IMG/VR virus record: IMGVR_UViG_2518645549_000001
Location: 1 to 64,000 of that record
Source: a virus
Taxonomy: Duplodnaviria > Caudoviricetes
Direction: 5' to 3' (one strand)
DNA: 64,000 nucleotides
A program made the translations under genes and the position numbers. Below the pieces are notes generated by a model. It made no database searches. It saw only the letters and a list, made by a program, of their open reading frames with translations, and had not been told where the DNA came from. This document shows, piece by piece, positions 1,492-61,678 of the stretch; position 1 is the stretch's first letter; each line of letters begins with the position of its first letter.

Positions 1492-1582
1492 GTCTGGTCC
1501 TCTAGCTTAGAAATGGTGCCCGACCTGCACCGCCGATGCGGTTTCCACAGTGCGGAAGATCGTCGGGTGTCACGCCTTTAGG

Positions 1583-1591
1583 TGATATACT
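1583..1591 (+). promoter_or_regulatory. Putative extended -10 promoter of the T1SS moron
   Basis: TGaTATACT about 40 bp upstream of ATG 1629. Confidence 0.4.
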
Positions 1592-1628
1592 GTCAGCCGT
1601 TTTTTGCCTTCGAAATAGTAGGGATGCC

Positions 1629-3417
1629 ATGGCTGATATTCAGGAAAATCAATTGCAGGTTGCTCTCGCCGCCTGCAAGAGCAGCTTTCTGTCAGTTGGT
1701 TTTTTCAGTATCTTCGTGAATGCCTTGATGCTTGTGCCGACTTTCTACATGATTCAAATTTCCGGAAGAGTGGTGCCCTCCAATAGCACCTCCACTTTGA
1801 TTGTAATTACTGCTGTTATGACTTGGCTCGTAGTTACGCAGGGCTTGCTTCAGTGGGTTAGATCTAAAATTATGGTTCGCGCTAGTAATCGAATGGATGT
1901 AATTTTGAGTCCGCACGTATACCGTGCGAGCTTCAATCGGGCATTGAAGAGCGGGGGTAGTGATGCTACCGCTCAGTCTTTGAATGACTTAACATCGCTT
2001 AGGCAATTTATTACTGGTCACGGCCTTTTCTCATTCTTTGATGCGCCATGGTTTCCAATATATACCGCAGTAATGTTCTATTTTCATCCGTGGCTGGGTT
2101 GGTTTACAATTTTTTTGCGGCGCAGTGCTTGTCGTATTGGCGTTTGTTAATAATCGGATCACCGGTAAGGCCCATGCTGATGTAAATAAGGATATCGTTG
2201 CAACTAATGTCACCACCCAGAAGACTCTGCGAAATGCAGAAGTGATCGAGTCTATGGGGATGCTTGAGAAACTGATGAATCGTTGGGCCAGCAGGCAGCA
2301 GGGCATCCTGAAACTTCAATCTGATGTTAGCGATCAGGGCAAAACAATAAGCTCGATTTCAAAGGCATTTCGCATTTGGTCCCAGTCGATATCGCTAGCA
2401 ATTACTGCATATCTTGTGGTCAAGCACGAAATTAACCCAGGATTGCTCATAGCCGGCTCGCTTCTCCTGTCAAGGGCGCTGGCGCCAGTTGATCAAATTA
2501 TTGCAAGCTGGAAGGGTTTTGTTCAGGCAAAAGTTCAGTATAAGCGACTGACCTCGGTGTTGGCTGAGCTTGGGGAAAAACCGAAAGGCGCAATGCATCC
2601 AGCCCCAGCAGGTGACATTGAGGTTAAGGATCTTGTGGTCACTCCCCCTGGTGGAAAGACACCCGTTCTTCACGAGGTAAGCTTTGATGTCCCCGCAGGC
2701 TCGATTGTAGGCGTAATCGGTCCTAGTGCCGCAGGTAAGTCTTCACTTGCGCGCGCACTTATGAACATCTGGCCCAAACAGAGCGGCGAGATCTTGCTCG
2801 ATGGAATTGAAATTAGCTCGTGGGATAAGCGGGCACTTGGGCCATACGTCGGTTATTTGCCGCAGGATATCGAGCTGTTTGAGGGCTCCATCAGTGAAAA
2901 TATTTCCCGCTTCGAGGAGGTTGACTCTGAAAAAGTAGTGGAGGCCGCAAAGACAGCTGGCGTGCACGAGATGATTCTTCTGCTTCCAGAAGGCTACGAC
3001 ACCGTAATTGGAAGCGAGGGAATCAATCTCTCAGGCGGCCAGCGTCAGCGCATTGGCCTTGCCCGTGCCATCTACCGAAATCCGAGACTGATCGTGCTCG
3101 ATGAGCCTAATTCAAACTTGGATGAAATCGGGGAGCGCGCTTTGAGCGTGGCTTTGCGTAAGCTTAAAGAGGCGGGTTCCACGATCTTCGTCGTATCGCA
3201 CAGGCCGAGCGTTCTTACTGTCGTCGATCGGATTTTGGTGATGGCAGACGGAAAGGTCTCGCTTTACGGCGACCGCGATGCGGTTATTGGCCAATTGGCA
3301 CGGCAGAACGCGGCAACCCAGAAGCGCGCCGCCCCACTTGCTGTAGTTGATGCACACACTGGACCGTCCTCGGTCACTAGCGGTCCATCCATGCCTGGCA
3401 ATGTCTCTCCGGTGTAG
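1629..3417 (+). pseudogene. Type I secretion ABC permease/ATPase (AprD/PrtD/HasD family), frameshifted at a T7 run
   Basis: TM domain plus Walker A GPSAAGKS, YLPQD, LSGGQ, LIVLDEP; T7 at 2110-2116 splits it into two ORFs, T6 would give one 595 aa frame. Confidence 0.85.
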
Positions 3418-3605: not shown

Positions 3606-3643
3606 GGTTATTCTCCACGCCGCCGGTGGCAGCAGGTTGGTGG

Positions 3644-4141
3644 TCAGGCTGGGGTCTTGGCCAACACTGCATCGGTGATCTTGATCGCGGCCTGGGCATC
3701 ATCGACGTAAGCTGGATCGAAGCCGCCGGCGTAGTGGATCACCCGCTGGCAGGCGTCCAGTTCTTTGCGAGCCAGGCGGAGTGCTTGAACCAGTTCTTCC
3801 TGCAGCGCTCCCTCGGCCCGGCCGATATTCCAAAACTCCTGACCCCAGTGATCAGCAGGCGGCGGGTTGCTGTTTTGCTTGCCGCAAGCCATGGCCCCGA
3901 TGATCGCGTCGCAGAGCAGGCGCTTGTAGATGTTCTCGCCATCAAGGCTCAGGCCACCGCGACGGCGCAGGGTGCTCACGACCTCGTCTACGTTGAGGCC
4001 GCTGTCCTTGAGCACGATATCGAGCTCAGGCTTTTCAGGGGTGTAGATGACTAGAGCCAGCTTGGCTTCCGGCCAGAGATCGGCCGCCAGGCGCTCCAGG
4101 CAGTCGTTCGCGGTATGGTGGAATCGTTCTGTTGCGGACAT
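3644..4141 (-). CDS. Phage hypothetical protein
   Basis: 165 aa ORF in the early-left operon, GAGGA upstream. Confidence 0.7.
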   Translation of the reverse strand: MSATERFHHTANDCLERLAADLWPEAKLALVIYTPEKPELDIVLKDSGLNVDEVVSTLRRRGGLSLDGENIYKRLLCDAIIGAMACGKQNSNPPPADHWGQEFWNIGRAEGALQEELVQALRLARKELDACQRVIHYAGGFDPAYVDDAQAAIKITDAVLAKTPA

Positions 4142-4192
4142 GGGGAATCCTCGCCCGCGCATGTCGGCGGGCTTGAGTTGTATGGGGAGGGG

Positions 4193-4384
4193 TTAGGCTT
4201 CTGGCTCGAAGCAGCGTTTGTAGCGGGACCGGTATTCCTCGCGGTCAAGGTTGGCGTGCAGTTCTTGCTCGCGACCGGCGGCCCACATCTGGTTATGGCG
4301 CTTGTTGCAGGTGAATCCGGTGTCCGATTCGTGCTCGCCGTCGACCCACTCCAGCCACTTGCAGGTGTTGCAGTTCTTGCTCAT
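4193..4384 (-). CDS. Small Cys-containing hypothetical protein
   Basis: MSKNCNTCKW..., coupled to the upstream peptide gene. Confidence 0.55.
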   Translation of the reverse strand: MSKNCNTCKWLEWVDGEHESDTGFTCNKRHNQMWAAGREQELHANLDREEYRSRYKRCFEPEA

Positions 4385-5771: not shown

Positions 5772-6121
5772 GGCCACTCCTTACTGGTCCGCTCGCATTG
5801 GGCAGCCAGCTTCAGCAGGTTGATGGTGGTTGGGCGGAACCCTTCAATGTTGGGATATCCCTCAAAGCGATGGCCGTTCGGGTAGGCCTCGAACGGCCCG
5901 TGCCAGCACCAGTTCATCTGCCAGTCATCCCAGACGGTGTAGGCGTCCTGGCCTTCGCCCCAGTAATCCAGGCCGCCGCCAACGCTCAGAACGTGCCGCA
6001 CGCTTGAGCCCTGGTCGTACGCCAGTTCCGTCGGCTCCTCATCACGCCAGGCCTTGCGGTAGACCGAAGGCAACAACTCGACCAAGCGTTTACTGAGTTT
6101 CTTCTCGATGCGTGCCTTCAT
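5768..6121 (-). CDS. Phage hypothetical protein
   Basis: 117 aa ORF, translationally coupled. Confidence 0.7.
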   Translation of the reverse strand: MKARIEKKLSKRLVELLPSVYRKAWRDEEPTELAYDQGSSVRHVLSVGGGLDYWGEGQDAYTVWDDWQMNWCWHGPFEAYPNGHRFEGYPNIEGFRPTTINLLKLAAQCERTSKEWP

Positions 6122-6480
6122 GGGTTCACCTTTTCAAAGTGGAACGCGACCTCGGCGCCGGTCTCGGCGATCAAGCCGTAGGTCTTGGCCAGGCGATAGA
6201 TGGGGTGGTACTGATTGAGGCTGTTCACGTGGCCGGCGAGCCAGCGGCGCCAGTCCTCCAGCTGCATGCGGGCCTTGCTCAGGTTGCAGGACACGCAGGC
6301 CGGCATCATGTTGGCCAGGTTGTGGTTCTGCAGATGCTCGGCCACCCGGTCATCAGGCAGGCGAATCACCGGAGCTAAGTGGTCGGCGTGCCAGCGGTCG
6401 CCCAGGGCATTGCCGCAGTAGGCGCAGAGGCCGCCGTACTTCATGCGGACCTGCTCGCGCTCAGCTTTCTTGAGGCGCAC
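6118..6480 (-). CDS. HNH endonuclease
   Basis: CAYCG...ADHLAP...NMMPACVSCNLSK. Confidence 0.85.
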   Translation of the reverse strand: MRLKKAEREQVRMKYGGLCAYCGNALGDRWHADHLAPVIRLPDDRVAEHLQNHNLANMMPACVSCNLSKARMQLEDWRRWLAGHVNSLNQYHPIYRLAKTYGLIAETGAEVAFHFEKVNP

Positions 6481-6560
6481 GAGTTCTCCTTGGCCGCCAT
6501 ATCGCGGCAGTGAATAGAGGGGAGAGGGGTTACAGCGAAAAGAGTACGGATGTACTCCTG

Positions 6561-7244
6561 TCAGGATCTGGCGGTGATCAGGGCGGTCTGGCCGGCACAG
6601 GCGTCACACGCTCGGTCAGTTGGTTGCTCCACCTGGCATGCTTGGCACGACCAGGTCGGCGAGCTTGGTCCGGCGCTGGCGGATAGGGCGTCAGCGATTC
6701 GGCGGAGTTCGTAGGCCGCATCCTTCAGCCTGGCGTCTGCTGTGTCGACAGCCTTGTCCACTCGGGCCCGGGTCATTTTCTTGTCTTCGTCCTGCAGGTC
6801 TTGCAGGGCGAATAGCGGCGCGCTGATCAGGTGGGCAGCCAAACGGATCAGCTTGCCTGAACTGTCGCGCAGCAGCTCATTCCGCTCGTCCAGCTGGGCG
6901 CGCAAGGTGGCGGTCTCCATTCTTGCAGCACGTAGTTCAGAGCTGTGAAGCTCAAGCAGCCTGGTGCCCGTGAGGGGCGCCGCACCTGATCCCAAAACCC
7001 GAGCCTCAATTGACGCCCAGGCAAGCTCATACTCGGGCCAGTCGCTTTCGATCACCAGAAACTGCCGAGGCGGGGCACCGGCGGCGAACATACGTTCATG
7101 CGCGACTCTGGAAGCTTTCGAAAACTCGATGCGTTGCTTTCCTGGAATTTTGTCCAGGTCGCTGCGCTTGATGACGATGTATCGGTCTTCGCGGTGGAGC
7201 ACGCTGACCATCTCTGTGTTGCTGGATCGGTTTTCTGTGGGCAT
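6561..7244 (-). CDS. Phage hypothetical protein with MPTENRSS leader and C-terminal zinc ribbon
   Basis: Coiled coil plus CQAC...CDAC; N-terminus shared with 54687-55046. Confidence 0.7.
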   Translation of the reverse strand: MPTENRSSNTEMVSVLHREDRYIVIKRSDLDKIPGKQRIEFSKASRVAHERMFAAGAPPRQFLVIESDWPEYELAWASIEARVLGSGAAPLTGTRLLELHSSELRAARMETATLRAQLDERNELLRDSSGKLIRLAAHLISAPLFALQDLQDEDKKMTRARVDKAVDTADARLKDAAYELRRIADALSASAGPSSPTWSCQACQVEQPTDRACDACAGQTALITARS

Positions 7245-7303
7245 GGGGATGCATCTCAAAAATAAGTTAACATCGCGCTATACGCGACCCAAGGTGGAAA
7301 GGA

Positions 7304-8074
7304 ATGACCTACGAAAAACGACTTCTTTGCTTCTTCGACTTGTTAGGGTTCTCTGCTGCAATTAAGCAAGCAGAGCAAGAGCCAAAGTTATTGGAGGCCA
7401 TGTCCCGTCTATTTGGAGAGTTCAAAAACGGTGGGCTAGAGACCGCCATGTATGGCGCAGTACCATACCTTGATGAGAATGGCGTTAAAACGTTGCAGGA
7501 GCATTTTGGAGACCTGCTTCTTGAGAAGGGCGATGAGGCTTACAAACTGGTGGCCACCCAATTCTCAGATTCTTTCGTAATATCCGCCCCTGCTGACAAT
7601 CCTGGTGCATGCAATCTACTGCTTCACGCTATTAAAATCGTGCATTTACAATTCTTCTTCGGCATAGGAATGCTAATGAGAGGAGGCGTTGCATTAGGTA
7701 ATGTCGTACATGAGCGCGGCGGGGCTCTTTTTGGGCCAGCTATGATTGAGGCCTACGAGCTTGAGAGCAGGCATGCAGTGTATTCGCGGGTTGTTGTTTC
7801 AAAAGACGCGGCTGATTTTATCAGTGAAAAACTATGGTTCTCCGATCTGAAAAGTGCATTTTTCAAAGGTTTCGATGGGCTGACTTCATTCGACCTTATC
7901 TCGGCCATGCTTCATCATAAGACATTCAGAAACGACAGAAATGGCGTTGAGGCTCAACTGCGAGCGGTAGAAACAGATATTCTTGAGAATGCCTCCGCTG
8001 CACATCCAAAAATTGCCTATTTACTGGACCGCTGGCAACGCGAATCTCATAATTTTGCGCAGAAGGCCAAGTAA
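7304..8074 (+). CDS. Class III nucleotide cyclase-like moron protein
   Basis: FFDLLGFS, QFSDSF, MRGGVALG, FGPAMIEAYELES motifs; lower GC; antisense to operon. Confidence 0.65.
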   Translation: MTYEKRLLCFFDLLGFSAAIKQAEQEPKLLEAMSRLFGEFKNGGLETAMYGAVPYLDENGVKTLQEHFGDLLLEKGDEAYKLVATQFSDSFVISAPADNPGACNLLLHAIKIVHLQFFFGIGMLMRGGVALGNVVHERGGALFGPAMIEAYELESRHAVYSRVVVSKDAADFISEKLWFSDLKSAFFKGFDGLTSFDLISAMLHHKTFRNDRNGVEAQLRAVETDILENASAAHPKIAYLLDRWQRESHNFAQKAK

Positions 8075-8124
8075 GTCCTCAATTGGTTCCTGAGCTCAGA
8101 AACCTAGCGGGCAGCGCCGGAGGG

Positions 8125-8541
8125 TCAGACGGCGGCGCGAACCTTGAAGCTCAGCATGGCGGTGGCGTCGTCGTTGAAGCACTCAGCCAGGTCTTGATAC
8201 ACCCGGTACTTGGCCTGGCTGCGGGTAGCTGCCCACACGCGCTGCACGTCATGGCGGGCATCGCCCAGCATATACCGGACGTCATACCAGTCGTACATAC
8301 CGTTGGTGAGCACCTCCCACTGCTTGAGCGGCAGCTTCTCGGCCATTTCGCCGTACTGCATTTTCCAGGTGGGGTGGTAGTTGCGGATTCGCTTCTTCGG
8401 GTCGCTGTCGAGGATGACGCCGATGTACTGACCGCGGTCGGCCATGATTACGCCAGGCTCGCCGTTGGCGATCACGCGGCGCCCAACCTCGGCAGGGACA
8501 TCGTAGGTGCGACGAACGTAGTCACAGTTATAGTTGCTCAT
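8125..8541 (-). CDS. Phage hypothetical protein
   Basis: DYVRRTYDVPAEVGRRV...YHPTW; GGAGG RBS. Confidence 0.75.
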   Translation of the reverse strand: MSNYNCDYVRRTYDVPAEVGRRVIANGEPGVIMADRGQYIGVILDSDPKKRIRNYHPTWKMQYGEMAEKLPLKQWEVLTNGMYDWYDVRYMLGDARHDVQRVWAATRSQAKYRVYQDLAECFNDDATAMLSFKVRAAV

Positions 8542-8647
8542 GGGGTCCTCCATGCATGTGCCGACAATGCGGGCAATTACGCGATAGTGGCAATTTGATG
8601 TCTTTAGGAGTATTTGTTGTCTTCCAGCCCAACGAGATGAACCCCCG

Positions 8648-8869
8648 ATGGACCGCGAGCCAACAAACCAGGAAGTCGCAGCAGTTCTCGGAATTGATAA
8701 GGATCAGGTTGATAAGTACCGTCAGGAGGCTGTGCTATTGGGCGACGGATCCTGGCTTATCCACTTTTCCTACGACATGCCGCGAGAGCTGCGGCACAGC
8801 TTCACCGGTAGCTTCACGGCGATCGTCGAATGCGTTGCAACTTGTGTTGACGCCCGCTCAGTCGACTGA
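8648..8869 (+). CDS. Small moron protein
   Basis: 73 aa antisense ORF downstream of a linker repeat. Confidence 0.6.
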   Translation: MDREPTNQEVAAVLGIDKDQVDKYRQEAVLLGDGSWLIHFSYDMPRELRHSFTGSFTAIVECVATCVDARSVD

Positions 8870-8892
8870 GGCTGGCGGGCAGCGAAGGACGG

Positions 8893-9654
8893 TCAGGCGG
8901 CTTTCGCTTCGGCCTGCTGAGCGACGATCGCCTTGGCGGCGTGGTTGATCAGGTACAGCCGATTGATCAGGCTGTCCCGAGGCTTGTCGATGGTGATCTC
9001 CCAGTAGTCGCAGCCCAGGCCAAGCACTTCGTGGTGCTCGCTCATGAGCATGCTGGCCTGTTCGACGCATTCGACGTGGTTGGCTTCGTACAGGCGATCA
9101 TTCAGGGCGTCCCAGAAGTCGTGCCCGTCTTCGCCGTACTCGAACGCTGCGAGCCGATCCTTGACCAGGCTGCGCAACTCATCCCACCGGCCTGCTTCAC
9201 CGGCACCGCCGTCATTCCGCATCCACTCGGGCAGGGCGGCGTACAGCTCGTCGTCATGGGTGTTTTCACAGATCTGGCTGCAGACGCCGGTTACCAGTGC
9301 TGCGCGGAAAGCTTCCTCATCGAACTCGCGCTCACGGCAATGCTCTTCGAGCTTCGAATGGATGTAGTAGCCGATGTCGTTCCCGGCCAGGAACTCGATG
9401 CCGTAGGACAGGCCAACGTTGAATGTCAGGCCATTGATGTCGCCGACGATGGCTATGCCGAAGCGGGTGATCAGGATGTCAAAGGCGTAACAGGTGGTGC
9501 CAGGGGCGTTGCAGCGCCATACCTTCAGCTGATCGGTGTCAGCCAGCACGGTGTATTCGTGGTCCTTCAGGCACTCGGCGGCGCGCTCCCGGCGATTCGC
9601 TTCTTCGGCTTTGCGCTGGGCGATCCATTCCTGGTGGCGTTGTTCGTCGTTCAT
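8893..9654 (-). CDS. Phage hypothetical protein
   Basis: 253 aa ORF with GGAG RBS, bracketed by linker repeats. Confidence 0.75.
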   Translation of the reverse strand: MNDEQRHQEWIAQRKAEEANRRERAAECLKDHEYTVLADTDQLKVWRCNAPGTTCYAFDILITRFGIAIVGDINGLTFNVGLSYGIEFLAGNDIGYYIHSKLEEHCREREFDEEAFRAALVTGVCSQICENTHDDELYAALPEWMRNDGGAGEAGRWDELRSLVKDRLAAFEYGEDGHDFWDALNDRLYEANHVECVEQASMLMSEHHEVLGLGCDYWEITIDKPRDSLINRLYLINHAAKAIVAQQAEAKAA

Positions 9655-9759
9655 GGCTTTCTCCATGCATGCGCCGCCCTCCGTGGCCGGATGCGGCATG
9701 GTGGCAAATTAGAAATTTATGGGGTAATTAGAGCTCTCCACCTTTTGAGGAAGAGAGAG

Positions 9760-10050
9760 ATGGCTGAATTGCTAGAGGACGTGGTCGGCGTAAATCAGGC
9801 CGGCCAGGTCTGTCATCCGTACAAGCTCACCCGCGGTAACAAGGCTGGCCAATACAGCTACACGCTTGAGACAGACAACAACCTCAACTACATCGGTGTA
9901 GACGAGGCTGGTCTGCGCTCATTGATTGAATCAGGTGCATTCAACGAAAAGGGCCGTATTCGCATGCTGCCTGCTGGCTGCCCGGCGGGCGCAGTCGGAA
10001 ACGCTTTGTCAGTCCGCCGCTACCAGGGAAAGCTGTTGCCGATTCGCTGA
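9760..10050 (+). CDS. Small moron protein
   Basis: 96 aa MAELLEDVVG..., purine-rich RBS; 3' part of the 8941-10050 track ORF. Confidence 0.65.
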   Translation: MAELLEDVVGVNQAGQVCHPYKLTRGNKAGQYSYTLETDNNLNYIGVDEAGLRSLIESGAFNEKGRIRMLPAGCPAGAVGNALSVRRYQGKLLPIR

Positions 10051-10128
10051 TACTTGACATGGTGGCAATTTGGTTTTGGATGGGGTATTACGGGTGACCG
10101 GCATGGGGCCGGGTCAAAGGAGTGAGCT

Positions 10129-10446
10129 GTGAAAAAGCCTGTTGTCGACCATATTTGGGCAAAGATCTACGACCAAGACAGCCTTGGTAAATCTGCAGCA
10201 CAGACCAAGCTGGATGAAGTGAAGGCTCTTCGCTTGCGGATACATGAGTCATACGGCAGTGAGGTTGCAAATAACGTGCTGAGTCATGGCCTGATTGAGC
10301 ACGCGCTTGCGCGCTGTATTGAAATACAAGACGGAAAATCCGGGCTTGATTACGATGATCTCCAGATTTATGCGACCTTCGCGACATCTGCAATGAATCA
10401 CTCCCAGACACTCATTGACAAAGAGCTAGGCGAGCTAGGCCTGTAA
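10129..10446 (+). CDS. Small moron protein
   Basis: 105 aa, AAGGAG RBS, GTG start. Confidence 0.65.
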   Translation: MKKPVVDHIWAKIYDQDSLGKSAAQTKLDEVKALRLRIHESYGSEVANNVLSHGLIEHALARCIEIQDGKSGLDYDDLQIYATFATSAMNHSQTLIDKELGELGL

Positions 10447-10956
10447 GCGAGGGGAGAGCACCTCGTCGCCCGGATCCTGCTGAATCATCAGCATGCTCTT
10501 CCGGTCGAAGGCCAGTGCCAGACGGGGCGATATCCTGATCTCGTGCCGCGGCGGGGTGAGAAACTTCGCTGCGTGCAGCCTGCCCAGGGCGTGTATTCCA
10601 TGGATCAGCCCCTCGATCATCTGGCTGTATGTAGCATCGGCCCAGCCGCAAATCGCCCGCAGGTGCTGGCCGGTTCGCTTCCTGGCTGACAGCCGCAGCG
10701 GCTCGACCCGCGCCACATTTCGGTGACCCTCGATTTCGTGGCGCGCGATCCTGAACAAGGCGTGATGCCCCAGCGCTTCGATGTGATGAATCATCAACGT
10801 CATCGCCTCGCCCTGTTCCTCGATCCCGGCCCACTCCATCAGTTCCAGCAGGGCCTGTTTAGTCCCTGGTCGAACCTTCAAACGCAGGTCTTCTTCCTGC
10901 AGCCGTGCGGCTTTGGCGCGTCGTTTCTCGTCGCGCTCCTTGGGTGACATCGCCAT
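10435..10956 (-). CDS. Putative DNA-binding protein with tandem RHH-like repeats
   Basis: Internal duplication LRL...W...IH...ALG; paralogue at 61148-61678. Confidence 0.7.
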   Translation of the reverse strand: MAMSPKERDEKRRAKAARLQEEDLRLKVRPGTKQALLELMEWAGIEEQGEAMTLMIHHIEALGHHALFRIARHEIEGHRNVARVEPLRLSARKRTGQHLRAICGWADATYSQMIEGLIHGIHALGRLHAAKFLTPPRHEIRISPRLALAFDRKSMLMIQQDPGDEVLSPRLQA

Positions 10957-11037
10957 ACGGCACCTCCATGATTCCGCTGGGCGGGATGTGTATGTGCAGC
11001 TGGCGGCGACGCTGCTGCGTGAGCTTCTGGATGCGTC

Positions 11038-11202
11038 TCATGGTTGGCACACCTCAATGGGCGTTTTCTTCGTCGAGCCAGACGGCATAACCACCAGTAG
11101 ACGCTTGTTTCCTCGGTATACGCCCCAAGGCTGACCAGTGGATCTGGCCATGGCCGCCGCGTACTTCACGGCGGGCACAGGCTGAGACATGGTGGCGATC
11201 AT
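11038..11202 (-). CDS. Small phage protein (MIATMSQPVPAVKYAAAM...)
   Basis: 54 aa, conserved in prophage 2. Confidence 0.55.
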   Translation of the reverse strand: MIATMSQPVPAVKYAAAMARSTGQPWGVYRGNKRLLVVMPSGSTKKTPIEVCQP

Positions 11203-16604: not shown

Positions 16605-17450
16605 TTAGACGGGCTGACCGTTCCAGACGTATAGCACCCGCGCCAGGATGTGCGTGTCATCCACGCGAATATCCTCGGGATCATGGTGCTTGTTGTCCGA
16701 GATCATCTTGAAGCGGTCCTTCCCTTTCTTCTGCAAGCGCTTCACGTAGAGCATCTCGTCATGGGAGAAGAGGTAGATCCCGTCGCCCGTAAACTCACGA
16801 ATGGTGATATCGACCAGGAGTGGATCGCGGTCCTTAATCGTGGGCGCCATAGACTGGCCCCATCCGGTGATCATCTTCAGGTGGTAGTGCTCTTTGAACG
16901 TGACACCCATTTCGCGAAGGTGGCGGGGGCTGACCCTGATGTCTTGCAGCATTTCTGGATAGTCGTGAGGGATCTGGCCGCCACCCATTGCTGCCCGGAC
17001 GTCATAGTGAGCGATCCATACCTCGTCGCCGACCTGGCCGGGCCTCGAAAAGTCCACGGTGACCACGTTGGACGAAGCCTGCTGCTCAGCAGATTTTTCC
17101 TCGATAGCGTCGGCGATCTTCTGCCTGGCCTCCGAAGACAGGCCTTTGCCATGCTTCGCCAGCATCTGCTTGACGATATCTGCCGTAGATAGAGTTTCAC
17201 GTCGCTCCGCCTCTGGCTCACCTTCGCCCAGCGGTTCATACCCGCGTAACTGGTCGGTGGTGATCCCAAAGAACTCGGCCAAAGGTCTGACCTGCTTGTC
17301 GGTTGGCTCCTTGATGCCTTTTGGGCCTTGGGGCTTGAGGATCCTGGAAATGGTCGACTGGCCGACGCTAGTGCGGCTCGACAGCTCAACCTGAGATATG
17401 CCGTTTTCGGCCATGAGTTGAGCGAGAATTTTGTCTATCGATTTATGCAT
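16605..17450 (-). CDS. cI: CI repressor (HTH + S24 autopeptidase)
   Basis: SQVELSSRTSVGQSTISRIL HTH; AMG cleavage-site region; GQSMAP (Ser) and YVKRL (Lys). Confidence 0.92.
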   Translation of the reverse strand: MHKSIDKILAQLMAENGISQVELSSRTSVGQSTISRILKPQGPKGIKEPTDKQVRPLAEFFGITTDQLRGYEPLGEGEPEAERRETLSTADIVKQMLAKHGKGLSSEARQKIADAIEEKSAEQQASSNVVTVDFSRPGQVGDEVWIAHYDVRAAMGGGQIPHDYPEMLQDIRVSPRHLREMGVTFKEHYHLKMITGWGQSMAPTIKDRDPLLVDITIREFTGDGIYLFSHDEMLYVKRLQKKGKDRFKMISDNKHHDPEDIRVDDTHILARVLYVWNGQPV

Positions 17451-17498
17451 AGGTGCAATGCTGCCTCCCGGCAGTGCATAGGGCAATACAGCTGAGCG

Positions 17499-17527
17499 TT
17501 GACAGATATGCACCAGTGCATGATTAT
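17499..17527 (+). promoter_or_regulatory. pR promoter with operator
   Basis: TTGACA, 17 bp, GATTAT; TGCACCAGTGCA at 17509-17520 inside the spacer. Confidence 0.8.
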
Positions 17528-17552
17528 GTGCATATCTACAAAGGAGGCAGCC

Positions 17553-17774
17553 ATGAGCGCTACCGATCTTCCGAAAAAACTGGATGAGCTGCTGGGCTCA
17601 GGCATGACCTACAAGGCCATTGCTGAACGCGCCAAGTGCGACGTCTCGACCGTTTTCCGTATTCGCAACGGCCAGATCAGCAACCCCAGCTATGTAGCTG
17701 GTACCGCTATCGACCAAATGCACGCTGAGCTGACCAAGAACGGCAAGCAAAGCCTCAAGAAATCCGCCGCTTAA
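17553..17774 (+). CDS. cro: Cro-like repressor
   Basis: AAGGAGG RBS; HTH MTYKAIAERAKCDVSTVFRIRNG; divergent from cI. Confidence 0.85.
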   Translation: MSATDLPKKLDELLGSGMTYKAIAERAKCDVSTVFRIRNGQISNPSYVAGTAIDQMHAELTKNGKQSLKKSAA

Positions 17775-18346: not shown

Positions 18347-19201
18347 ATGCATCTGCAGGAATCCAGTATACAAGCCCCCTCGAATCTCGCGCCACAAAAC
18401 GCGAAGTTCGATTTCGTGGCGCGCAACCAAATCGTAGCCATCGTCGACGGTGAGGCGGTGACCACCACCGGGACCATCGCTCACGAAACCGGTAATGAGC
18501 ACGCCAGCGTGATTGCCTTGGTTCGCAAGTACCAGGCCGACTTCAGCGAATTCGGAGGGGTGCGATTCCAAATCGAACCCTTCGAGACTGCTGGCGGCAT
18601 GCAATCCCGCGAGATCGCGCTGATGAACGAGCAGCAGGCGACCCTCCTGCTGACCTACATGCGTAACACGGCCATCGTCCGTGAGTTCAAGAAGCGCTTG
18701 GTGAAGGAGTTCTGGCGCCTGGCTAAATCCGGCCCGGCCCAGCCCGCCGACCTGAGCAAGCTGGAAATCCTCCAGATGGCCCTGGAGTCGGAGAAGGCCC
18801 GCGTGCTGCTCACAGTCCAAGTCGAGGCCCAGACCAAGAAGATCGATCACCTGGAAAACCTGTTCAAGGAGGGTATGAGCCACGTCCAGTTCTGCAAGGG
18901 CCTGAATGGGGTCAACGTGATGCAGGTGGGTCACTTCCTTGAAGGCCGAAGCTGGCTCTACAACGAGAGCAAGTCCGGCACCCGGTACCGCGTCGCCGCC
19001 TACGCCCGCGACAAGTACATGACCGAGCACCAGCAAACCATCACCCCTCATGGCAAAGAGGCCTTCATCAGCTTCACGCCGATCCTGCTGCGCAAAGGCG
19101 CCATACGCCTGTACGAGCTGTACCTGGCCGACGAGCTGCCCATGAAGAAGAACTGGGACGGCCTGCACACCCACGACAAGGCCGTGCGGGGTGCAGCATG
19201 A
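18347..19201 (+). CDS. Rha family regulator / antirepressor
   Basis: Rha-like N-domain (HASVIALVRKY...NEQQATLLLTYMRN...FKKRLVKEF) with antirepressor-like C-terminus. Confidence 0.8.
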   Translation: MHLQESSIQAPSNLAPQNAKFDFVARNQIVAIVDGEAVTTTGTIAHETGNEHASVIALVRKYQADFSEFGGVRFQIEPFETAGGMQSREIALMNEQQATLLLTYMRNTAIVREFKKRLVKEFWRLAKSGPAQPADLSKLEILQMALESEKARVLLTVQVEAQTKKIDHLENLFKEGMSHVQFCKGLNGVNVMQVGHFLEGRSWLYNESKSGTRYRVAAYARDKYMTEHQQTITPHGKEAFISFTPILLRKGAIRLYELYLADELPMKKNWDGLHTHDKAVRGAA

Positions 19202-19584: not shown

Positions 19585-20366
19585 GCGTCCAATCCATGTC
19601 CTGGGCTTTGGAGCAGCGCGACATCGTAGACGCCACTGCGCGCTACGTGCTGCTGGTCCTGGCCAACTATGCCGACAAGAACGGCCGAGGGGCTTTTCCG
19701 TCCTCCGCAAGCATCAGCGATGACACTGGCCTGTCCATCCGCACGGTCAAGTACAAGCTCGACCACCTGCTGGAGATCGGCGTAATTCGCCTTGGAAATC
19801 AGGCAATTGCCGGCGCCTACATCGACCGTCACGACCGTCGCCCGACCGTCTACGACTTGTGCATAGAACGGGGTGCACCAGTTGCACCCGGTTCGGAACG
19901 GGGTGCAAATGACGACAGAACGGGGTGCAGCTCACGACAGAACGGGGTGCAAGCCACGATAGAACGGGGTGCAGGAGCTGCACCCAATCCATCAATAAAC
20001 CATCAAGGAACCATCAAAGAACCGAAGGGGCCAGTCGCTGACGCTCCTGCGGCTCCGAAGAATGGCCAGAAGTTCGACCCGTTGACTGCCAAGCCGGGCA
20101 ACGTGAGCAGCGCTGTTTGGGCTGACTGGTGCCAGCACCGCAAAGAGATCCGCAAGCCGCTGACCGCCACCACCTGCGCGAAGCAGGCCAAGACCCTGGC
20201 CGGCCACCACGCGCCTGACGCCGTGATCAACCAGTCAATCAGCAACGGCTGGACCGGCCTGTTCCCGGAGAAGGTGCTGCCGGGTGCACAGCAGCGCGGT
20301 ACCCGCTCCAACGAACCCGACTTCAACGACTCATCCTGGGCCGAAGGGCTGATGGTGCGCACATGA
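19581..20366 (+). CDS. Replication initiator (lambda O-like, HTH_36)
   Basis: VLLVLANYAD...FPSSASISDDTGLSIRTV wHTH, internal iterons, C-terminal SISNGWTGLF. Confidence 0.85.
   Translation: MSVQSMSWALEQRDIVDATARYVLLVLANYADKNGRGAFPSSASISDDTGLSIRTVKYKLDHLLEIGVIRLGNQAIAGAYIDRHDRRPTVYDLCIERGAPVAPGSERGANDDRTGCSSRQNGVQATIERGAGAAPNPSINHQGTIKEPKGPVADAPAAPKNGQKFDPLTAKPGNVSSAVWADWCQHRKEIRKPLTATTCAKQAKTLAGHHAPDAVINQSISNGWTGLFPEKVLPGAQQRGTRSNEPDFNDSSWAEGLMVRT
19866..19973 (+). repeat. Replication origin iterons
   Basis: GAACGGGGTGCA at 19866, 19896, 19918, 19940, 19962 (spacing 30,22,22,22) plus an inverted variant at 19883-19894. Confidence 0.85.
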
Positions 20367-24782: not shown

Positions 24783-24832
24783 TCCGCGCCACAAAACAAT
24801 GAAGTGCCATTTCGTGGCGCGGAGACAAATCT

Positions 24833-54368: not shown

Positions 54369-54528
54369 GACTTCGTCCTTGGCTGCCATTTCGCGGCAGT
54401 GAATAGAGGGGAGAGGGGTTACAGCGGGGTGGAGTACAAATGTGATCTGATTAAAAAACGTACAAAATCATGCGGGCTATGTTCTAGATCCGGTATTCTC
54501 GGTTGTCACCAATCAAAGAGAGGTGGTT

Positions 54529-57729: not shown

Positions 57730-57818
57730 CGTGTGGTCCTTGCGTGCAGGCGCCGCTCTCGCCGAGGAGGCGCAATTCTGATTGGGCTACAGTTGAGCTG
57801 TTGATTGGAGGGCAGCTG

Positions 57819-58202
57819 ATGCTGAAAATCGGTGAAGACACAGCCTGGATAGGCGATTACTACGACTACATCCGTGACGGGTGCGCAAAAGAGGCGTACG
57901 CATTGCTGATCGGAACCCTCGTCTGCATGAAATCGGTCACCTGCTACCGGAAGCGTCAGGGTGAAGTGCGCTCAGTAGGAATCGAAGTTGATGGAGAGTG
58001 CTGGTTTGCACTCATGCCGACCCAGGGTTGGCTGACATTCCAATGGCGACCGCCTGTGACTAGGGCAAAAAGGTACAGCGCGGCTCATGTTCGTGCACAA
58101 TTCCCGGACAGCTTCACACTCCCCCAGGATGAGCACTGGGCGGTGCGGGTCAACACGATCGAGGATGCTTTGCTGTTGCTTCTGATCCTCGACCTGAGCT
58201 GA
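57819..58202 (+). CDS. Moron hypothetical protein
   Basis: GGAGG RBS, 127 aa. Confidence 0.65.
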   Translation: MLKIGEDTAWIGDYYDYIRDGCAKEAYALLIGTLVCMKSVTCYRKRQGEVRSVGIEVDGECWFALMPTQGWLTFQWRPPVTRAKRYSAAHVRAQFPDSFTLPQDEHWAVRVNTIEDALLLLLILDLS

Positions 58203-58267
58203 TGCCGGGAGGCGTTATCGTTGAATAGGGGTGATATGCTTCGCCGCTTACCAGAAGGAGAGTGGTG

Positions 58268-58465
58268 ATGCTTTTGCGTGAGGGGCTTCGAACGTTCCAG
58301 CTATGGTTCAATCCGAAGCGCAGACGGTGGACTGGCGTGATGCTGATCGCGCTTGGGGTGGTCGGGATGTTTCTCAACCCGGAAAGCCGGTGGACCGTGG
58401 TGTTAGGAACAGGGATCTATTGGTTCTTCACGGCTTTACCACCAGTACTTGGCGGCAAGCGCTAA
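58268..58465 (+). CDS. Small two-TM moron protein
   Basis: AAGGAG RBS; two hydrophobic helices. Confidence 0.6.
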   Translation: MLLREGLRTFQLWFNPKRRRWTGVMLIALGVVGMFLNPESRWTVVLGTGIYWFFTALPPVLGGKR

Positions 58466-58570
58466 GGCACCGATAGCTGAAGTACGAGAACTTTGAACTT
58501 CTGAGAAGCCTGATGGCTCTGAGCCAGTCCCGCTAAGCACAGGGCAAGGCGGCCTCTCAGAGATTCAGTC

Positions 58571-58669
58571 ATGTTTTCGGAAGACTTCTACGGCGTGTTC
58601 CTGGTTGCCGAATCGGTATTGGCATTCACCGTGCTGGCAGTCGCATACCATTGGAACCGAGGCGCTTAA
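58571..58669 (+). CDS. Putative 32 aa membrane peptide
   Basis: MFSEDFYGVFLVAESVLAFTVLAVAYHWNRGA; weak RBS. Confidence 0.35.
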   Translation: MFSEDFYGVFLVAESVLAFTVLAVAYHWNRGA

Positions 58670-58737
58670 GCCCCTGGAGTTATCCAAGATGAGGGCGCCC
58701 CTCTTTCGGGTGGTGGCATTTTGATGTCGTATCGTGT

Positions 58738-59028
58738 TTGATGCTGCACAGGCCTTCTATGGAGAGAACCGGAGTGCTGACTATTGGCGTGGTTGAAAGG
58801 ATTAACCAGGATCGTATCGCAATCTGGGTGGAGGAGCAGAGCGCCTACACCGTCATTGCGTTGCAGTCGACTGCCCAGATCGAGCAGGGCGATGTCATGT
58901 GCTGGCGTGATCGATCCTCTACGGGATCATGTAATTACTGGAACGCGACCAAAGGCTGGAATGCTGAGGTGAGCGTGCAGGCTCAGGATGTCGCGATTGA
59001 TCTGCTAGGACAGCATCTCAACTGGTGA
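58738..59028 (+). CDS. Moron hypothetical protein (beta-rich)
   Basis: ORF downstream of a GTGGCATTTTG linker; start uncertain. Confidence 0.55.
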   Translation: MMLHRPSMERTGVLTIGVVERINQDRIAIWVEEQSAYTVIALQSTAQIEQGDVMCWRDRSSTGSCNYWNATKGWNAEVSVQAQDVAIDLLGQHLNW

Positions 59029-59224
59029 CATTGGCGTGTGCTGGAGTGTTCCAATCCTGCCACCTACGGAGAAGCGTTGTCGTTGAATATGGGCAGGCGC
59101 TGACGGGCGGCGCCGTCTGGGTGAATGTGGCAGGCAGGTGATATGCTTCGCCGCTCACCAAACAAGGATGGTGGTAATGGGGTTGCGAGATCGAGGAAGA
59201 TCGCCAAGATCAGGAGCTGCCGCG

Positions 59225-59632
59225 ATGAAGACCCGAACGGCATCATTCATAGGGCTCGCGATTTGGATAGCGTTTCTTTGGCTGGGAAAGCCATCTGCGT
59301 CGTTGATCAGCTATTCTGTGCCGTTTGGAATTGCTCTGATCGCCACAGGCCCCCTCGAACTGATCCCAGATCGTTGGCACAGGCTTAATTTCCTCGTCAA
59401 TGCCCTGGCGACTGGATTCTTCTTTGTCAGCATAATGTTTGCGATAGTGGCAATCTCTTTCGCCCTGTCATTGAGCACAAGCGAGCGTTCGATTTTCTGC
59501 CTTGCTGGATGGGCAACGCTGTTGATTGTCTACCATTTCGCAATCCCTCGGCTGAAGCGGTCGCCGTTTCACCGACTCAGCCAGGATAGAGGGATGTACA
59601 GCTCTCCAACGGATGACGATAAACGGAACTGA
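59225..59632 (+). CDS. Four-TM moron protein
   Basis: AGGAG RBS; four hydrophobic segments. Confidence 0.6.
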   Translation: MKTRTASFIGLAIWIAFLWLGKPSASLISYSVPFGIALIATGPLELIPDRWHRLNFLVNALATGFFFVSIMFAIVAISFALSLSTSERSIFCLAGWATLLIVYHFAIPRLKRSPFHRLSQDRGMYSSPTDDDKRN

Positions 59633-59687
59633 GATCAGATAGGCCAATGCCTGAGCAGATTAGTCGCTGGCGGGCAGCGCAGGAGGG

Positions 59688-60285
59688 TCAGGCCGCGCGT
59701 CGAATTTTTTCGGCGCGGCGCTCAGCCAGCTTGAGTCGAAGCGCTTCCTTGTAGCTGGCCTTGGCCGCTTTCATGGTACGAGCCCACTCGCCTGCGACCT
59801 CAACAGTCTCGTAGGGCGACCAGTGCGCGAAACGGGTAGGCCTGCGATGCTCGCAGTAGGCGCTGCCGCGTGGGTAGCGCACCATCCGGTATTCATAGTC
59901 TCCCCAGGTGCCGCGCTGCTGGATCTGGGGCTGGTTGATCCCGAGGAAGTGGGCGAAGCCGTCATAGCATTCGCACTCGTCGAGATAGGCATCGAACTTG
60001 GTGTACTTTCGCGGAGGCGGCGGCGGGGGAAGCTTGGCCAGCGCAAACTGCTTCCCTTCAGGCGTTGCCCGGTACACCACGTCATTAGCATCACAGAAGG
60101 CCGGCGCCTTGCCGCGCGTCATCAGTCCAGCCTCTACGAGTACATCCAGGTTATTGGCGTCGTCATAGCCTGGGCTGGTGAGGAAGTGGTTTCTTCCGCC
60201 AGTTCGGCAGCTTGGATTTAGTCCCAGGGTGTGCCAGAGCAGGTTGAGCTGCTTCTCGGTGGCTTCGATCATGACTTTCTCCATG
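59688..60285 (-). CDS. Phage hypothetical protein
   Basis: LLWHTLG...RNHF...LVEAGLM; bracketed by linker repeats. Confidence 0.7.
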
Positions 60286-60376
60286 CATGCGCCGCCCTCC
60301 GTGGCCGGATGCGGCATGGTGGCAATTTGGTTTGGGATGGGGTATTGGTATCTATTTAAATCGGGACTGGTAAAGC

Positions 60377-61167: not shown

Positions 61168-61678
61168 GCTCGGGCCTAAGAATCTCGTCCCCTGGATCCT
61201 GCTGAATCATCAGCATGCTCTTCTGGTCGAAGGCCCGGGCCAACTTTGGCGAGATGCTGATCTTATGCCGCGGCGGGGTGAGAAACTTCGCCGCGTGCAG
61301 CGCGCCCAGGGCGTGAATGCCGTTGATCAGCGCCTCGATCATCTGGCTGTATGTGGCGTCGGCCCAGCCGCAGATAGCTCTCAGGTGCTGTCCGGTTCTC
61401 TTCCGGGCTGACAGCCGCAGCGGCTCATTCCGCGCCACAGAACGGTGAGCCTCGATTTCGTGGCGCGCAATCCGGAACAGCGCGTGATGCCCGAGCGCTT
61501 CGATGTGATGAATCATCAGCGTCATCGCCTCGCCCTGTTCCTCGATCCCGGCCCACTCCATCAGCTCCAGCAGGGCCTGCTTAGTCCCTGGTCGAACCTT
61601 CAAGCGCAGGTCTTCTTCCTGCAGGCGCTCGGCCTTCTCGCGCCGTCGCTTGTCGCGCTCTTGCGATGTCATCGCCAT
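61148..61678 (-). CDS. Tandem RHH-like protein
   Basis: Paralogue of 10435-10956. Confidence 0.7.
   Translation of the reverse strand: MAMTSQERDKRRREKAERLQEEDLRLKVRPGTKQALLELMEWAGIEEQGEAMTLMIHHIEALGHHALFRIARHEIEAHRSVARNEPLRLSARKRTGQHLRAICGWADATYSQMIEALINGIHALGALHAAKFLTPPRHKISISPKLARAFDQKSMLMIQQDPGDEILRPELRPCLF

Follow-up and report, generated by a model that had tools for sequence, protein, structure and literature searches.

The 64,000 nucleotides analysed here (positions 1 to 64,000 of the Caudoviricetes record IMGVR_UViG_2518645549_000001, hereafter the window) carry what is probably a hypervariable hotspot of lambdoid prophages from the Pseudomonas putida group, situated in their leftward early (PL-type) operon. 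We observed directly the anatomy of this hotspot, its spread, the variability of both of its gene slots and the reassortment of genes across its linkers. A cI-like repressor gene lies at 16605-17513 on the minus strand and a cro-like gene at 17499-17774 on the plus strand, with O-like and P-like replication genes downstream of the latter on the same strand, and an exonuclease gene and a Gp157/Gam-like gene occupy the minus strand at 11.7-13 kb; from this layout it follows that the minus-strand genes of the hotspot are genes of the early-left operon.

Read in the sense of the operon, the stop codon of one gene is followed directly by a predicted GC hairpin (linker B, GCGCUG-CCCGC-CAGCGC) and a C-rich stretch, after which come a second predicted GC hairpin and a ribosome-binding site on the side of linker A, and then the next operon gene. 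Both linkers are non-coding and hardly vary; together they form the ends of a single spacer of about 85 bp, and in about four cases out of ten this spacer is interrupted by at least one gene on the opposite strand. To the left of linker B we found the intact spacer at 54 of 93 sites, the stop of a plus-strand ORF at 35 and another arrangement at 4, and the antisense genes stop 0-40 nt before hairpin B.

Linkers and genes in the window

The linkers, boxes and spacer-like elements of the window are the following.

8104-8128, no strand: linker B copy 1, repeat family D6, stop TCA at 8125-8127
8549-8616, no strand: linker A copy 1, with minus-strand ribosome-binding site, GTGGCA at 8587-8592 and -10-like TATTTG at 8611-8616; families D4 and D9
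8872-8896, no strand: linker B copy 2, stop TCA at 8893-8895
9655-9730, no strand: linker A copy 2, with minus-strand ribosome-binding site, GC hairpin at 9671-9697, GTGGCA at 9701-9706 and -10-like TAATTA at 9725-9730; family D8
10058-10128, plus: box-alone cassette, with GTGGCA at 10062-10067, TATTAC at 10086-10091, leader hairpin at 10098-10112, ribosome-binding site and GTG start at 10129
58219-58267, plus: mid-portion of the spacer, then a leader of the second kind (TGATATGCTTCGCCGC...); a short plus-strand gene comes next, ATG at 58268
58709-58742, plus: box without linker A, GTGGCA at 58713-58718 and TTTGAT at 58737-58742; family D4
59081-59632, plus: spacer-like stretch, with B-like hairpin at 59096-59114, second kind of leader at 59139-59154 and a membrane-protein gene from ATG 59177 to 59632
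59667-59691, no strand: linker B copy 3, stop TCA at 59688-59690
60273-60348, no strand: linker A copy 3, GTGGCA at 60319-60324 and -10-like TATTGG at 60343-60348; family D8

Linker B, GCGGGCAGCGNNGGANGGTCAG, matches the window at 8107, 8875 and 59670, three matches where 0.07 were expected, and none of 100 shuffled sequences gave at least three. As the initial annotation had described, in all three copies the TCA of GGTCAG reads on the other strand as the TGA stop of an ORF (8125-8553, 8893-9654 and 59688-60272). The left arm of the hairpin is degenerate in copy 1, and hairpin B has no U tract. The membrane-protein gene at 59177-59632 also stands before linker B in seven other loci (L005, L012, L046, L056, L060, L070 and L083).

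As repeats (families D8 and D9), copies of linker A lie at 8533-8563, 9646-9726 and 60264-60344. The same annotation had placed the ribosome-binding sites of the minus-strand genes in this linker, and on reading the sequence GGAG is indeed found 6-8 nt before the minus-strand ATG in every copy. Copies 2 and 3 are 88% identical over 80 nt; copy 1 (8549-8600) differs strongly from both, and its variant of the linker also precedes the same 73-aa gene in locus L012. Raw reads of an RNA run from another organism (X24) cover exactly 9661-9705, with unlike flanks on both sides, and coverage in that run is limited to this segment and 7200-7247; run X21 gave no reads. The stretch is also present as contigs in 20 RNA runs, contigs being a form of data that shows neither starts, strand nor level; in runs X1 and X9 the contigs end at linker A, a repeat, or close to it.

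Folding of single sequences of linkers A and B and of the leader gave structures no better than shuffled controls (z -0.7 to +1.0), and none of 13 predicted pairs was compensatory over 32 aligned spacers, because the spacer sequence hardly varies. A search of Rfam with the region 7000-11200, at E up to 1, gave no matches.

The genes of the two hotspot copies are listed below.

7304-8074, plus: low-GC gene (GC 0.47), 256 aa, adjoining linker B copy 1
8125-8553, minus: variable early-operon gene, 142 aa, phrog_16342 (E 6.7e-71, a family with no assigned function), GC3 0.83
8648-8869, plus: antisense cargo gene 1, 73 aa, stop 4 nt before linker B
8893-9654, minus: variable early-operon gene, 253 aa, 81.8% identical DNA in Pseudomonas phage PseuP_222
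9760-10050, plus: antisense cargo gene 2, 96 aa, no family match
10129-10446, plus: antisense cargo gene 3, 105 aa, phrog_29878 (E 9.6e-33, a family with no assigned function)
10435-10956, minus: conserved early-operon gene, phrog_5439, right bound of the variable region
58759-59028, plus: ORF after the 58713 box, 89 aa, start uncertain because no clear ribosome-binding site precedes it
59688-60272, minus: variable early-operon gene, 194 aa, phrog_21796 (E 5.1e-56, a family with no assigned function)
60377-61167, plus: antisense cargo gene split in two ORFs, 60377-60775 and 60823-61167

The conserved gene at the right edge of this region (10435-10956) is homologous to 61148-61678 (repeat family D1, 86% over 300 nt). 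The three minus-strand proteins and the plus-strand proteins of the window have no significant pairwise similarity by BLASTP (best E 0.025), which agrees with their earlier description as unrelated; two of the minus-strand proteins match different parts of one weak PHROG, phrog_2730. In PseuP_222 the counterpart of 8893-9654 has identical kinds of linker on both sides, and a homologue of cargo gene 2 follows a box in locus L005 beside a different minus-strand gene. Pfam and PADLOC assigned no family to the cargo genes of the window, bar a weak helix-turn-helix-like match of cargo gene 1 to Sigma70_r3 (E 3.7e-4) that falls below the curated cut-off. The split cargo gene at 60377-61167 is represented in locus L123 by an intact ORF of 256 aa.

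The gene at 7304-8074 has no GTGGCA box upstream, and none of the 107 homologues of its protein has a Pfam family. Its AlphaFold model (pLDDT 94.9) has as top Foldseek matches in the PDB only adenylyl/guanylyl cyclase domains (E from 4e-5), and the protein is thus predicted to have a class III nucleotidyl-cyclase-like fold. No homology of this protein to the 256-aa gene of L123 was found (E 0.31). A methylase gene and a PAPS-reductase-like gene adjoin the early-operon genes, and because of these neighbours the early-operon genes may have counter-defence functions.

Spread, variability and reassortment

Exact matches to linker B were found in 89 IMG/VR stretches, and linker A with the box in 42 genome stretches, 37 of which name Pseudomonas in their titles, mostly species of the putida group; as loci were recruited by these exact matches, the sample is a biased one. 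With one mismatch at most, a 16-mer of the box was found in 64 of 401 sampled genomes of Pseudomonas species (about 80 matches, against about 17 for a reversed-pattern control), and three whole genomes of 5.8-6.1 Mb held 1-2 copies each. A search of a phage collection at near identity returned only 2 records for each of two window queries, among them PseuP_222 over 18% and PseuP_224 over 5% of the length of the first and UFJF_PfDIW6 over 2% of the second.

When 91 loci (878 kb) were oriented by linker B, forward matches far outnumbered reverse ones for the core of linker A (67 versus 3), the box (67 versus 1), the leader hairpin (38 versus 4) and linker B (101 versus 0). A single locus holds at most three A cores, four boxes and three B sites, and usually one of each, and so with 1-4 elements per locus this is a hotspot rather than a long array.

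Both slots are variable. The minus-strand ORFs ending in linker B fall into 23 clusters (78 proteins), and the 79 cargo ORFs that lie 55-80 nt from a box fall into 50; median GC of the cargo is 0.50, versus about 0.61 for the backbone, with the minus-strand genes at 0.59-0.65. Linker A stands at the start of 48 of the 93 minus-strand ORFs that end in B, and in an independent set of genomes 20 of 36 complete minus-strand ORFs beside linker A end in B. The initial annotation had the linkers flanking different genes in two prophages, and this was borne out; the linkers are moreover widespread, many alternative genes stand beside them, and the combinations of genes reassort. The annotation had also proposed defence genes as cargo, and here the outcome was divided: up to five of 51 cargo genes (four identified and one unidentified member) match defence models, those found elsewhere including an HNH nuclease (PDC-M68A, 1.9e-23), TIR-TM (5.5e-17) and PD-T7-4 (2e-13), but PADLOC matched none of the six plus-strand genes of the window.

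One family of minus-strand genes may stand with three to five cargo families, and one cargo with up to four minus-strand families. Comparison of pairs of loci places the change of partner at the linker itself. Locus L089 and locus L050 share all 57 positions of the linker with left and right flanks that match at only 97 and 98 of 300; the window and L012 likewise share 57/57, with 287/300 matches in the left flank and 78/300 in the right; and L089 and L042 match at 77/300 to the left, 51/57 in the linker and 273/300 to the right. Across an identical linker, then, the operon genes and the antisense genes combine freely.

We infer recombination at the linkers from these mosaic boundaries. Identical linkers of 45-85 bp probably serve as substrates for homologous recombination between co-resident phages and prophages, and phage or host recombinases would then swap, insert or delete gene cassettes, as has been proposed for the promoter-early stem-loops (PeSLs) of T4-like phages. 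Added roles of the linkers in translation start, RNA structure and promotion probably keep them identical. The annealase of the Sak/ERF type to which the exchange had been ascribed was not found among the ORFs scanned, which hold the exonuclease and the Gp157/Gam-like protein.

The GTGGCA box as a promoter-like element

The string GTGGCAWWT matches the window five times, always on the plus strand, at 8587, 9701, 10062, 58713 and 60319. This 9-mer is not significant alone (2.12 matches are expected, and 9 of 100 shuffles gave at least five), and it is on account of the 32-nt repeat family D4 and the cross-genome data that we regard the box as real. By inspection every copy has a -10-like hexamer whose start lies exactly 18 nt beyond GTGGCA, equivalent to 17 nt beyond TGGCAW (TATTTG at 8611, TAATTA at 9725, TATTAC at 10086, TTTGAT at 58737 and TATTGG at 60343), confirming the fixed spacing of 17 bp after TGGCA(A/T) that had been reported for five boxes. 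The full cassette, which is portable, opens with the box, GTGGCAAT, as its -35-like element and has the -10-like hexamer at a distance of 18 bp; in many copies a predicted leader hairpin comes next, and a ribosome-binding site then precedes the start codon, some 70 nt from the box. The copy at 58713 is the weakest, with no clear ribosome-binding site before the ATG at 58759.

Across loci, a ribosome-binding site and an ORF of at least 40 aa follow 55-80 nt after 49 of 67 boxes, compared to 1327 of 20000 random positions (6.6%), and the distance from the start of the box to the start codon peaks at 68-71 nt (49 of 93 ORFs). A cassette of about 55 nt, the one in the box-alone copy at 10058-10128, is common to 24 of the 50 cargo families. 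In 56 variants of the box with differing -10 regions, the mean match to TATAAT is 2.98 of 6 at offset 18 and about 1.5 elsewhere, and a match of at least 4 of 6 occurs in 54% at offset 18 and in at most 12% at any other offset. Of 42 variants with a cargo ORF, 29 have the hexamer, as against 6 of the 19 that lack such an ORF (Fisher p = 0.011). This positional behaviour fits the promoter that the initial annotation had seen in the linker A box, and supports the box as a promoter-like element for plus-strand genes.

A simple scan for the sigma-70 consensus calls none of the boxes, and the commonest -10-like hexamer, TATTAC, is without the usual final T; the box is probably a promoter of sigma-70 type but of non-consensus sequence. 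A sigma-54 promoter was considered and rejected, as TGGCA is present but, on reading, no window copy has GC at -12. As a promoter the box would drive the antisense genes in the manner of morons, probably while the prophage is repressed. Should transcription begin directly downstream of the -10-like hexamer, the predicted stem-loop would be found in the transcript at its 5' end or close to it.

Alternative explanations and known systems

The arrangement had initially been interpreted as an integron-like, expandable array of two-gene units (linker B, minus-strand gene, linker A, cargo gene) that needs no dedicated recombinase and is dedicated to defence cargo expressed in the lysogen. Prophage 1 does have two units side by side and prophage 2 has one, genes vary between the conserved linkers, and some cargo elsewhere matches the HNH, TIR-TM and PD-T7-4 models, but we consider this account improbable, as most loci hold one of each element and none exceeds three A cores, four boxes and three B sites, A and B are halves of a spacer that is intact at 54 of 93 sites, and 24 of 67 boxes are without linker A, and therefore the two-gene unit is not the unit of exchange. 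Moreover the genes alternate in strand and a promoter-like cassette of its own precedes each cargo gene, whereas integron cassettes are promoterless and co-oriented, and defence matches come to none of six in the window and four identified plus one unidentified of 51 overall. Sites of a dedicated phage nuclease with homing-like repair would offer another origin for the exchange, given that an HNH/endonuclease VII-like gene (6118-6480) lies some 1.7 kb away from the hotspot and that the linkers have hairpin-forming GC repeats; HNH genes are, however, common in phage early regions, and we give this idea very little credence.

It is also conceivable, though unlikely, that the linkers are conserved purely as regulatory and translational signals and that the genes turn over by illegitimate recombination with selection for working junctions. 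The linkers do hold ribosome-binding sites, hairpins and the promoter-like box, and the near-invariance of the spacer in 32 sequences with different neighbours fits a strong sequence-specific function; against this, some 60 invariant bases are more than a ribosome-binding site and a hairpin call for, and the joints fall at the same few positions inside 45-57 identical bp in many independent combinations, which illegitimate joining would not lead one to expect. That the GTGGCA box is a regulator binding site, or the -35 element (TTGCCA) of the minus-strand gene, and not a plus-strand promoter, seems very unlikely to us. The sequence from box to hexamer (ATTTGGTTTGGGATGGGG) is more conserved than a promoter spacer requires, ATGG(T/G)GG can be read three times, 21-23 bp apart, in the copy at 10058-10110, and TTGCCA on the minus strand matches TTGACA at 5 of 6 positions. 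However, no -10-like hexamer is seen by eye 16-18 bp after TTGCCA on that strand, the box-alone copies (24 of 67) have no adjoining minus-strand gene, the window has no box in its cI/cro region, and the plus-strand hexamer survives divergence of the spacer at its fixed spacing and tracks the presence of cargo.

We tentatively propose, as a possible reading of the hotspot, a two-faced gene-exchange platform, in which the linkers would let any co-resident phages swap early-operon and antisense genes by homologous recombination, maybe via small circles like those of PeSLs, and the antisense genes, each joined to the standard promoter-leader cassette, would be expressed in the lysogen as defence or conversion functions. 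If the hotspot is as we describe it, temperate Pseudomonas phages would share with T4-like phages the trick of regulatory cassettes that double as recombination handles, at least 50 unrelated gene families would have a standard antisense expression cassette in common, prophage accessory genes, candidate defence genes included, could be found by promoter rather than by protein family, and a natural system would be at hand in which to measure the homology that phage recombination needs in the wild. If the exchange platform itself proves true, hundreds of uncharacterised genes expressed in lysogens could be sought by means of the box alone.

Within the body of papers searched, the motif strings gave only two unrelated matches and no relevant paper. 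With integrons the hotspot shares a site at which many alternative genes stand between repeated sequences. It differs from them in that the ORFs scanned (3.6-17.8 kb and 55.4-61.7 kb) gave no integrase family match or attI, in that, as far as reading of the sequence shows, no attC-type palindrome follows each cassette (A and B differ and bracket genes on both sides), and in that the cassettes do not form a promoterless series of one orientation read from a common promoter, with no more than 3-4 elements per array. Boundary or linker sequences of lambdoid phages reportedly figure in Susskind and Botstein's modular theory, and Clark et al. (2001) are said to have described linker sequences at lambdoid gene boundaries in HK620. 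Such sequences resemble ours as short conserved gene boundaries that coincide with mosaic joints, but the present linkers are longer (45-85 bp), near-invariant, equipped with hairpins and a promoter-like box, and found in Pseudomonas and not in enteric phages.

Among known systems the hotspot comes closest to the PeSLs of T4-like phages and to the morons of lambdoid phages. Morons, a concept reviewed by Cumby et al. 2012 (PMC3594210), are extra genes with their own transcription signals and deviant composition between otherwise adjacent genes, and the cargo is like them in that a plus-strand ORF fills the spacer at 35 of 93 B sites, with the spacer intact at 54, and in its median GC of 0.50 against 0.59-0.65 in the minus-strand genes. 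Morons are usually described as individual insertions with unrelated signals, whereas here 50 or more families share one cassette and one insertion spacer. PeSLs are described, in the sections of Arbiol et al. 2010 (PMC2839356) and Comeau et al. 2014 (PMC4122927) that deal with them, as repeated intergenic composites in which the stop codon of the neighbouring gene, a promoter and a GC stem-loop are combined with a ribosome-binding site and start codon. A lytic T4-like genome has about 50 of them; they match the sigma-70 consensus and have a shown capacity to promote and terminate transcription, and mini-circles were detected. On that description the likeness is close, since the present elements too are short composites of stop, promoter-like box, predicted stem-loop, ribosome-binding site and start, they stand upstream of orphan genes in a hyperplastic region, and the places where related phages differ by an insertion, a deletion or a replacement have their joints at copies of them. 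The differences, to the same extent, are that PeSL activity has been shown while the promoter here is putative and non-consensus, that a temperate lambdoid prophage holds 1-4 copies where a lytic T4-like genome holds about 50, and that the present cassette is two-faced, its two strands serving an operon gene and an antisense gene respectively.

Setting and layout of the hotspot

The provirus record is 112 kb long, the window being its first 64 kb, and two related prophages lie within it (repeats D1, D2 and D16-D18). Prophage 1 has a lambdoid layout because it carries a cI-like repressor (16605-17513, minus strand), a cro-like gene and O-like and P-like replication genes. Its leftward early operon spans about 16.5 to 3.6 kb, is made up of the minus genes in that stretch and includes an exonuclease, a Gp157/Gam-like protein and an HNH endonuclease, and the same operon in prophage 2 includes a C5 methylase and a PAPS-reductase-like gene. 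From this context, the hotspot lies within the leftward early operon, to which its plus-strand genes run antisense. The layout described in the initial annotation, with linker B holding the stop of a minus gene, linker A on its RBS side, and cargo genes mostly following the GTGGCA motif (the box), was seen on reading 7500-11000 and 57800-61500 and in ORF lists.

Features of the hotspot in the window

Prophage 1
7304-8074, plus: plus-strand gene
8107: linker B
8125-8553, minus: minus gene
8587: GTGGCA, in linker A
8648-8869, plus: cargo gene
8875: second linker B
8893-9654, minus: minus gene
9701: GTGGCA, in linker A
9760-10050, plus: cargo gene
10062: box without linker A
10129-10446, plus: cargo gene
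10435-10956, minus: minus gene
Prophage 2
58713: box
58759-59028, plus: plus-strand ORF
59177-59632, plus: plus-strand gene
59670: linker B
59688-60272, minus: minus gene
60319: GTGGCA, in linker A
60377-61167, plus: cargo gene split into two ORFs
61148-61678, minus: minus gene

A repeat finder recovered the same element families (D4, D6, D8 and D9); the cassette layout is tandem in prophage 1 and present in prophage 2. Matches to linker B in the window are far beyond chance (3 against 0.07 expected), and those to the bare 9-mer GTGGCAWWT are not (5 against 2.12). The fixed hexamer spacing claimed earlier holds, since in each of the five window copies a -10-like hexamer follows GTGGCA at exactly 18 nt, and so does the unrelatedness of the linker-flanked genes, the window proteins being mutually unrelated in pairwise BLASTP comparison. 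G+C is 0.47-0.56 in the plus-strand genes of the window against about 0.61 in the minus genes.

Other junctions in the same operon (3610-3650, 4150-4205 and 6487-6537; also 54376-54426) have a similar grammar without the linker sequence, namely a stop, a plus-strand G-rich tract, a GC hairpin, an RBS and a start. Near the left end of prophage 1, a low-GC overlapping ORF pair (1536-3417, plus strand; 204 and 430 aa) together resembles one ABC transporter/ATPase (PADLOC mad3, 1.1e-29; PHROG, ABC transporter), possibly one gene that has been split. Another element, of 39 nt, has ends that are inverted (CGCGCCAC...GTGGCGCG); its four copies (10707-10745, 18385-18423, 24783-24821 and 61429-61467) fall within, or at the start of, various genes of either strand. 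Three tandem 22-bp repeats (GAACGGGGTGCA...) at 19896-19974 in the O-like replication initiator gene are probably origin iterons.

Anatomy of the spacer and probable exchange at the linkers

In 91 loci oriented by linker B the elements were co-oriented (forward/reverse: A core 67/3, box 67/1, leader hairpin 38/4, B 101/0). To the left of linker B, an intact conserved spacer extending as far as the next minus gene's start codon was found at 54 of 93 sites, in the order CAT, RBS, GC hairpin, ...CGTTGAATAGGGGAAGGCGCT, then B. At 35 others the stop of a plus-strand ORF lies no more than 60 nt from B, and 4 sites have neither. Because of this flank of B, and because the intact spacer starts with GCGCCGCCCTC just as linker A does, a single intercistronic spacer of about 85 bp has A at one end and B at the other, with the antisense genes within it. 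By eye, the mid-spacer can be aligned with the box region. The B hairpin (GCGCTG-GCGGG-CAGCGC) begins directly after the stop of the minus gene, and the spacer is C-rich in the operon sense (C 29, G 15 of 63).

The minus ORFs that end in B group into 23 clusters and those adjoining linker A into 21 families; 48/65 of the latter ORFs end in B, as do 20/36 in an independent genome set. One minus family pairs with 3-5 cargo families and one cargo with up to 4 minus families, and this free pairing, with 50 cargo clusters, bears out the claim that the linkers flank changing genes and recur with different cargo. Mosaic boundaries are sharp at the linker in aligned pairs of loci (WIN, the window; L numbers, loci from other records).

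Identities at the linker and its flanks

L089 and L050: left flank 97/300, linker 57/57, right flank 98/300
WIN and L012: left flank 287/300, linker 57/57, right flank 78/300
L089 and L042: left flank 77/300, linker 51/57, right flank 273/300

Only 9661-9705 is matched by raw RNA reads of another organism, which continue into unlike sequence at either end; these reads show the same mosaic edges independently. From these alignments we infer that homologous exchange occurs at the linkers. PMC3945230 describes relaxed recombination by phage Rad52-like recombinases in enteric temperate phages; among the prophage ORFs scanned here no Rad52-like recombinase was identified, and the proposal of a Sak/ERF-type annealase behind the exchange was not supported.

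The box and the antisense genes

An RBS and an ORF of at least 40 aa lie 55-80 nt after 49/67 boxes, compared to 6.6% of 20000 random positions, and the distance from box to start codon peaks at 68-71 nt (49/93). Among 56 variants differing in the -10 region, the match to TATAAT is 2.98/6 at offset 18 against about 1.5 elsewhere, and a match of at least 4/6 is found in 54% at offset 18 and in at most 12% at any other offset. The hexamer is kept in 29/42 variants with a cargo ORF but in 6/19 without one (p = 0.011). These positional signals favour the box as a putative promoter of the antisense genes, as had been proposed, but a consensus promoter scan calls none of the boxes; TATTAC, the commonest hexamer, is without the final T. 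A cassette of about 55 nt is identical across 24/50 cargo families and ends in a hairpin, which would stand at or near the transcript 5' end if the start lies just after the hexamer. Linker A is absent from 24/67 boxes, such as that at 10062 between two plus-strand genes. Other plus-strand genes, mostly small membrane-protein genes, follow a second leader, also portable (TGATATGCTTCGCCGC...ACCAAACAAGGAG...ATG), whose extended -10-like motif reads TGnTATGCT. This leader comes right behind the spacer or hairpin B (22 forward, 0 reverse in 133 loci; 58232-58267 and 59139-59176, plus strand, in the window).

In all, 79 ORFs lie 55-80 nt from a box, and they fall into 50 clusters with a median GC of 0.50. 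The cargo scan covered 51 proteins, being 46/50 cluster representatives (L001, L057, L086 and L129 omitted; 10129-10446 already included) and five window genes (7304-8074, which has no box, 8648-8869, 9760-10050, 58759-59028 and 59138-59632). Pfam named 3/51. PADLOC matched an HNH-nuclease protein, a TIR-TM fragment, a PD-T7-4-like protein and, weakly, PDC-S31, with one further weak match; three of these are cargo genes behind a box in other genomes.

L105 3-143, minus: TIR-TM model match
L094 4321-5175, plus: HNH nuclease (PDC-M68A-like) match
L131 6591-7265, minus: PD-T7-4 match

The suggestion of defence cargo thus finds candidates in a few proteins of other genomes, but not among the six plus-strand window genes tested, of which 0/6 matched in PADLOC. 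Several cargo proteins begin, on reading, with signal-peptide-like or membrane-like segments. The consecutive ORFs at 60377-61167 (plus strand; 132 and 114 aa) together correspond to an intact 256-aa gene after the same box (L123 6223-6993), which suggests either a frameshift in this copy or an error in sequencing.

The low-GC gene at 7304-8074 (plus strand; 256 aa) is confidently predicted, from a modelled fold with a pLDDT of 94.9, to encode a class III nucleotidyl (adenylyl/guanylyl)-cyclase-like domain. It has 107 homologues, all unnamed. An invariant F-x-D-x-x-G-F stretch resembles the metal-binding motif of class III cyclases. The gene had no Pfam or PADLOC match and no obvious effector gene beside it.

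Spread and comparison with known systems

The Pseudomonas phage PseuP_222 carries the same 253-aa gene, both linkers and two more boxes before plus-strand genes. An exact scan of IMG/VR for linker B gave 89 stretches, and a scan for linker A plus box, with one genome per species, gave 42, of which 37 are titled Pseudomonas, mostly putida-group species. The 16-mer box (at most 1 mismatch) occurs in 64/401 sampled Pseudomonas species genomes, a tally that takes in the unpublished genome G102, with about 80 matches against about 17 for a reversed-pattern control. Three whole genomes hold only 1-2 copies each, which marks the box as belonging to phages and not as a promoter in general use by the host.

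The hotspot is real, widespread and well structured, and is read from its sequence as a recombination and regulatory hotspot with a putative promoter, putative lysogen expression and a putative exchange mechanism. The integron-like capture array first proposed is unlikely, as the analogy fails on the features tested and A and B are halves of one spacer. The motif strings of the elements were not found in any relevant paper of the library searched. The closest known kind is the promoter-early stem-loop (PeSL) of T4-like phages. PMC2839356 and PMC4122927 present PeSLs as intergenic composites of a stop codon, sigma-70 promoter, GC stem-loop, RBS and start codon, enriched in hyperplastic regions just ahead of orphan genes. 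Both promotion and termination of transcription by PeSLs were demonstrated, along with a role in shuffling and in mini-circles. The hotspot elements, described here from sequence, have the anatomy and comparative signature in common with PeSLs. They belong to another type of host phage and have another copy number, and promoter quality and the two-strand design also set them apart. The antisense genes agree with the concept of morons, extra phage genes with their own transcription signals, and the hotspot is a variant of the PeSL kind with new features.
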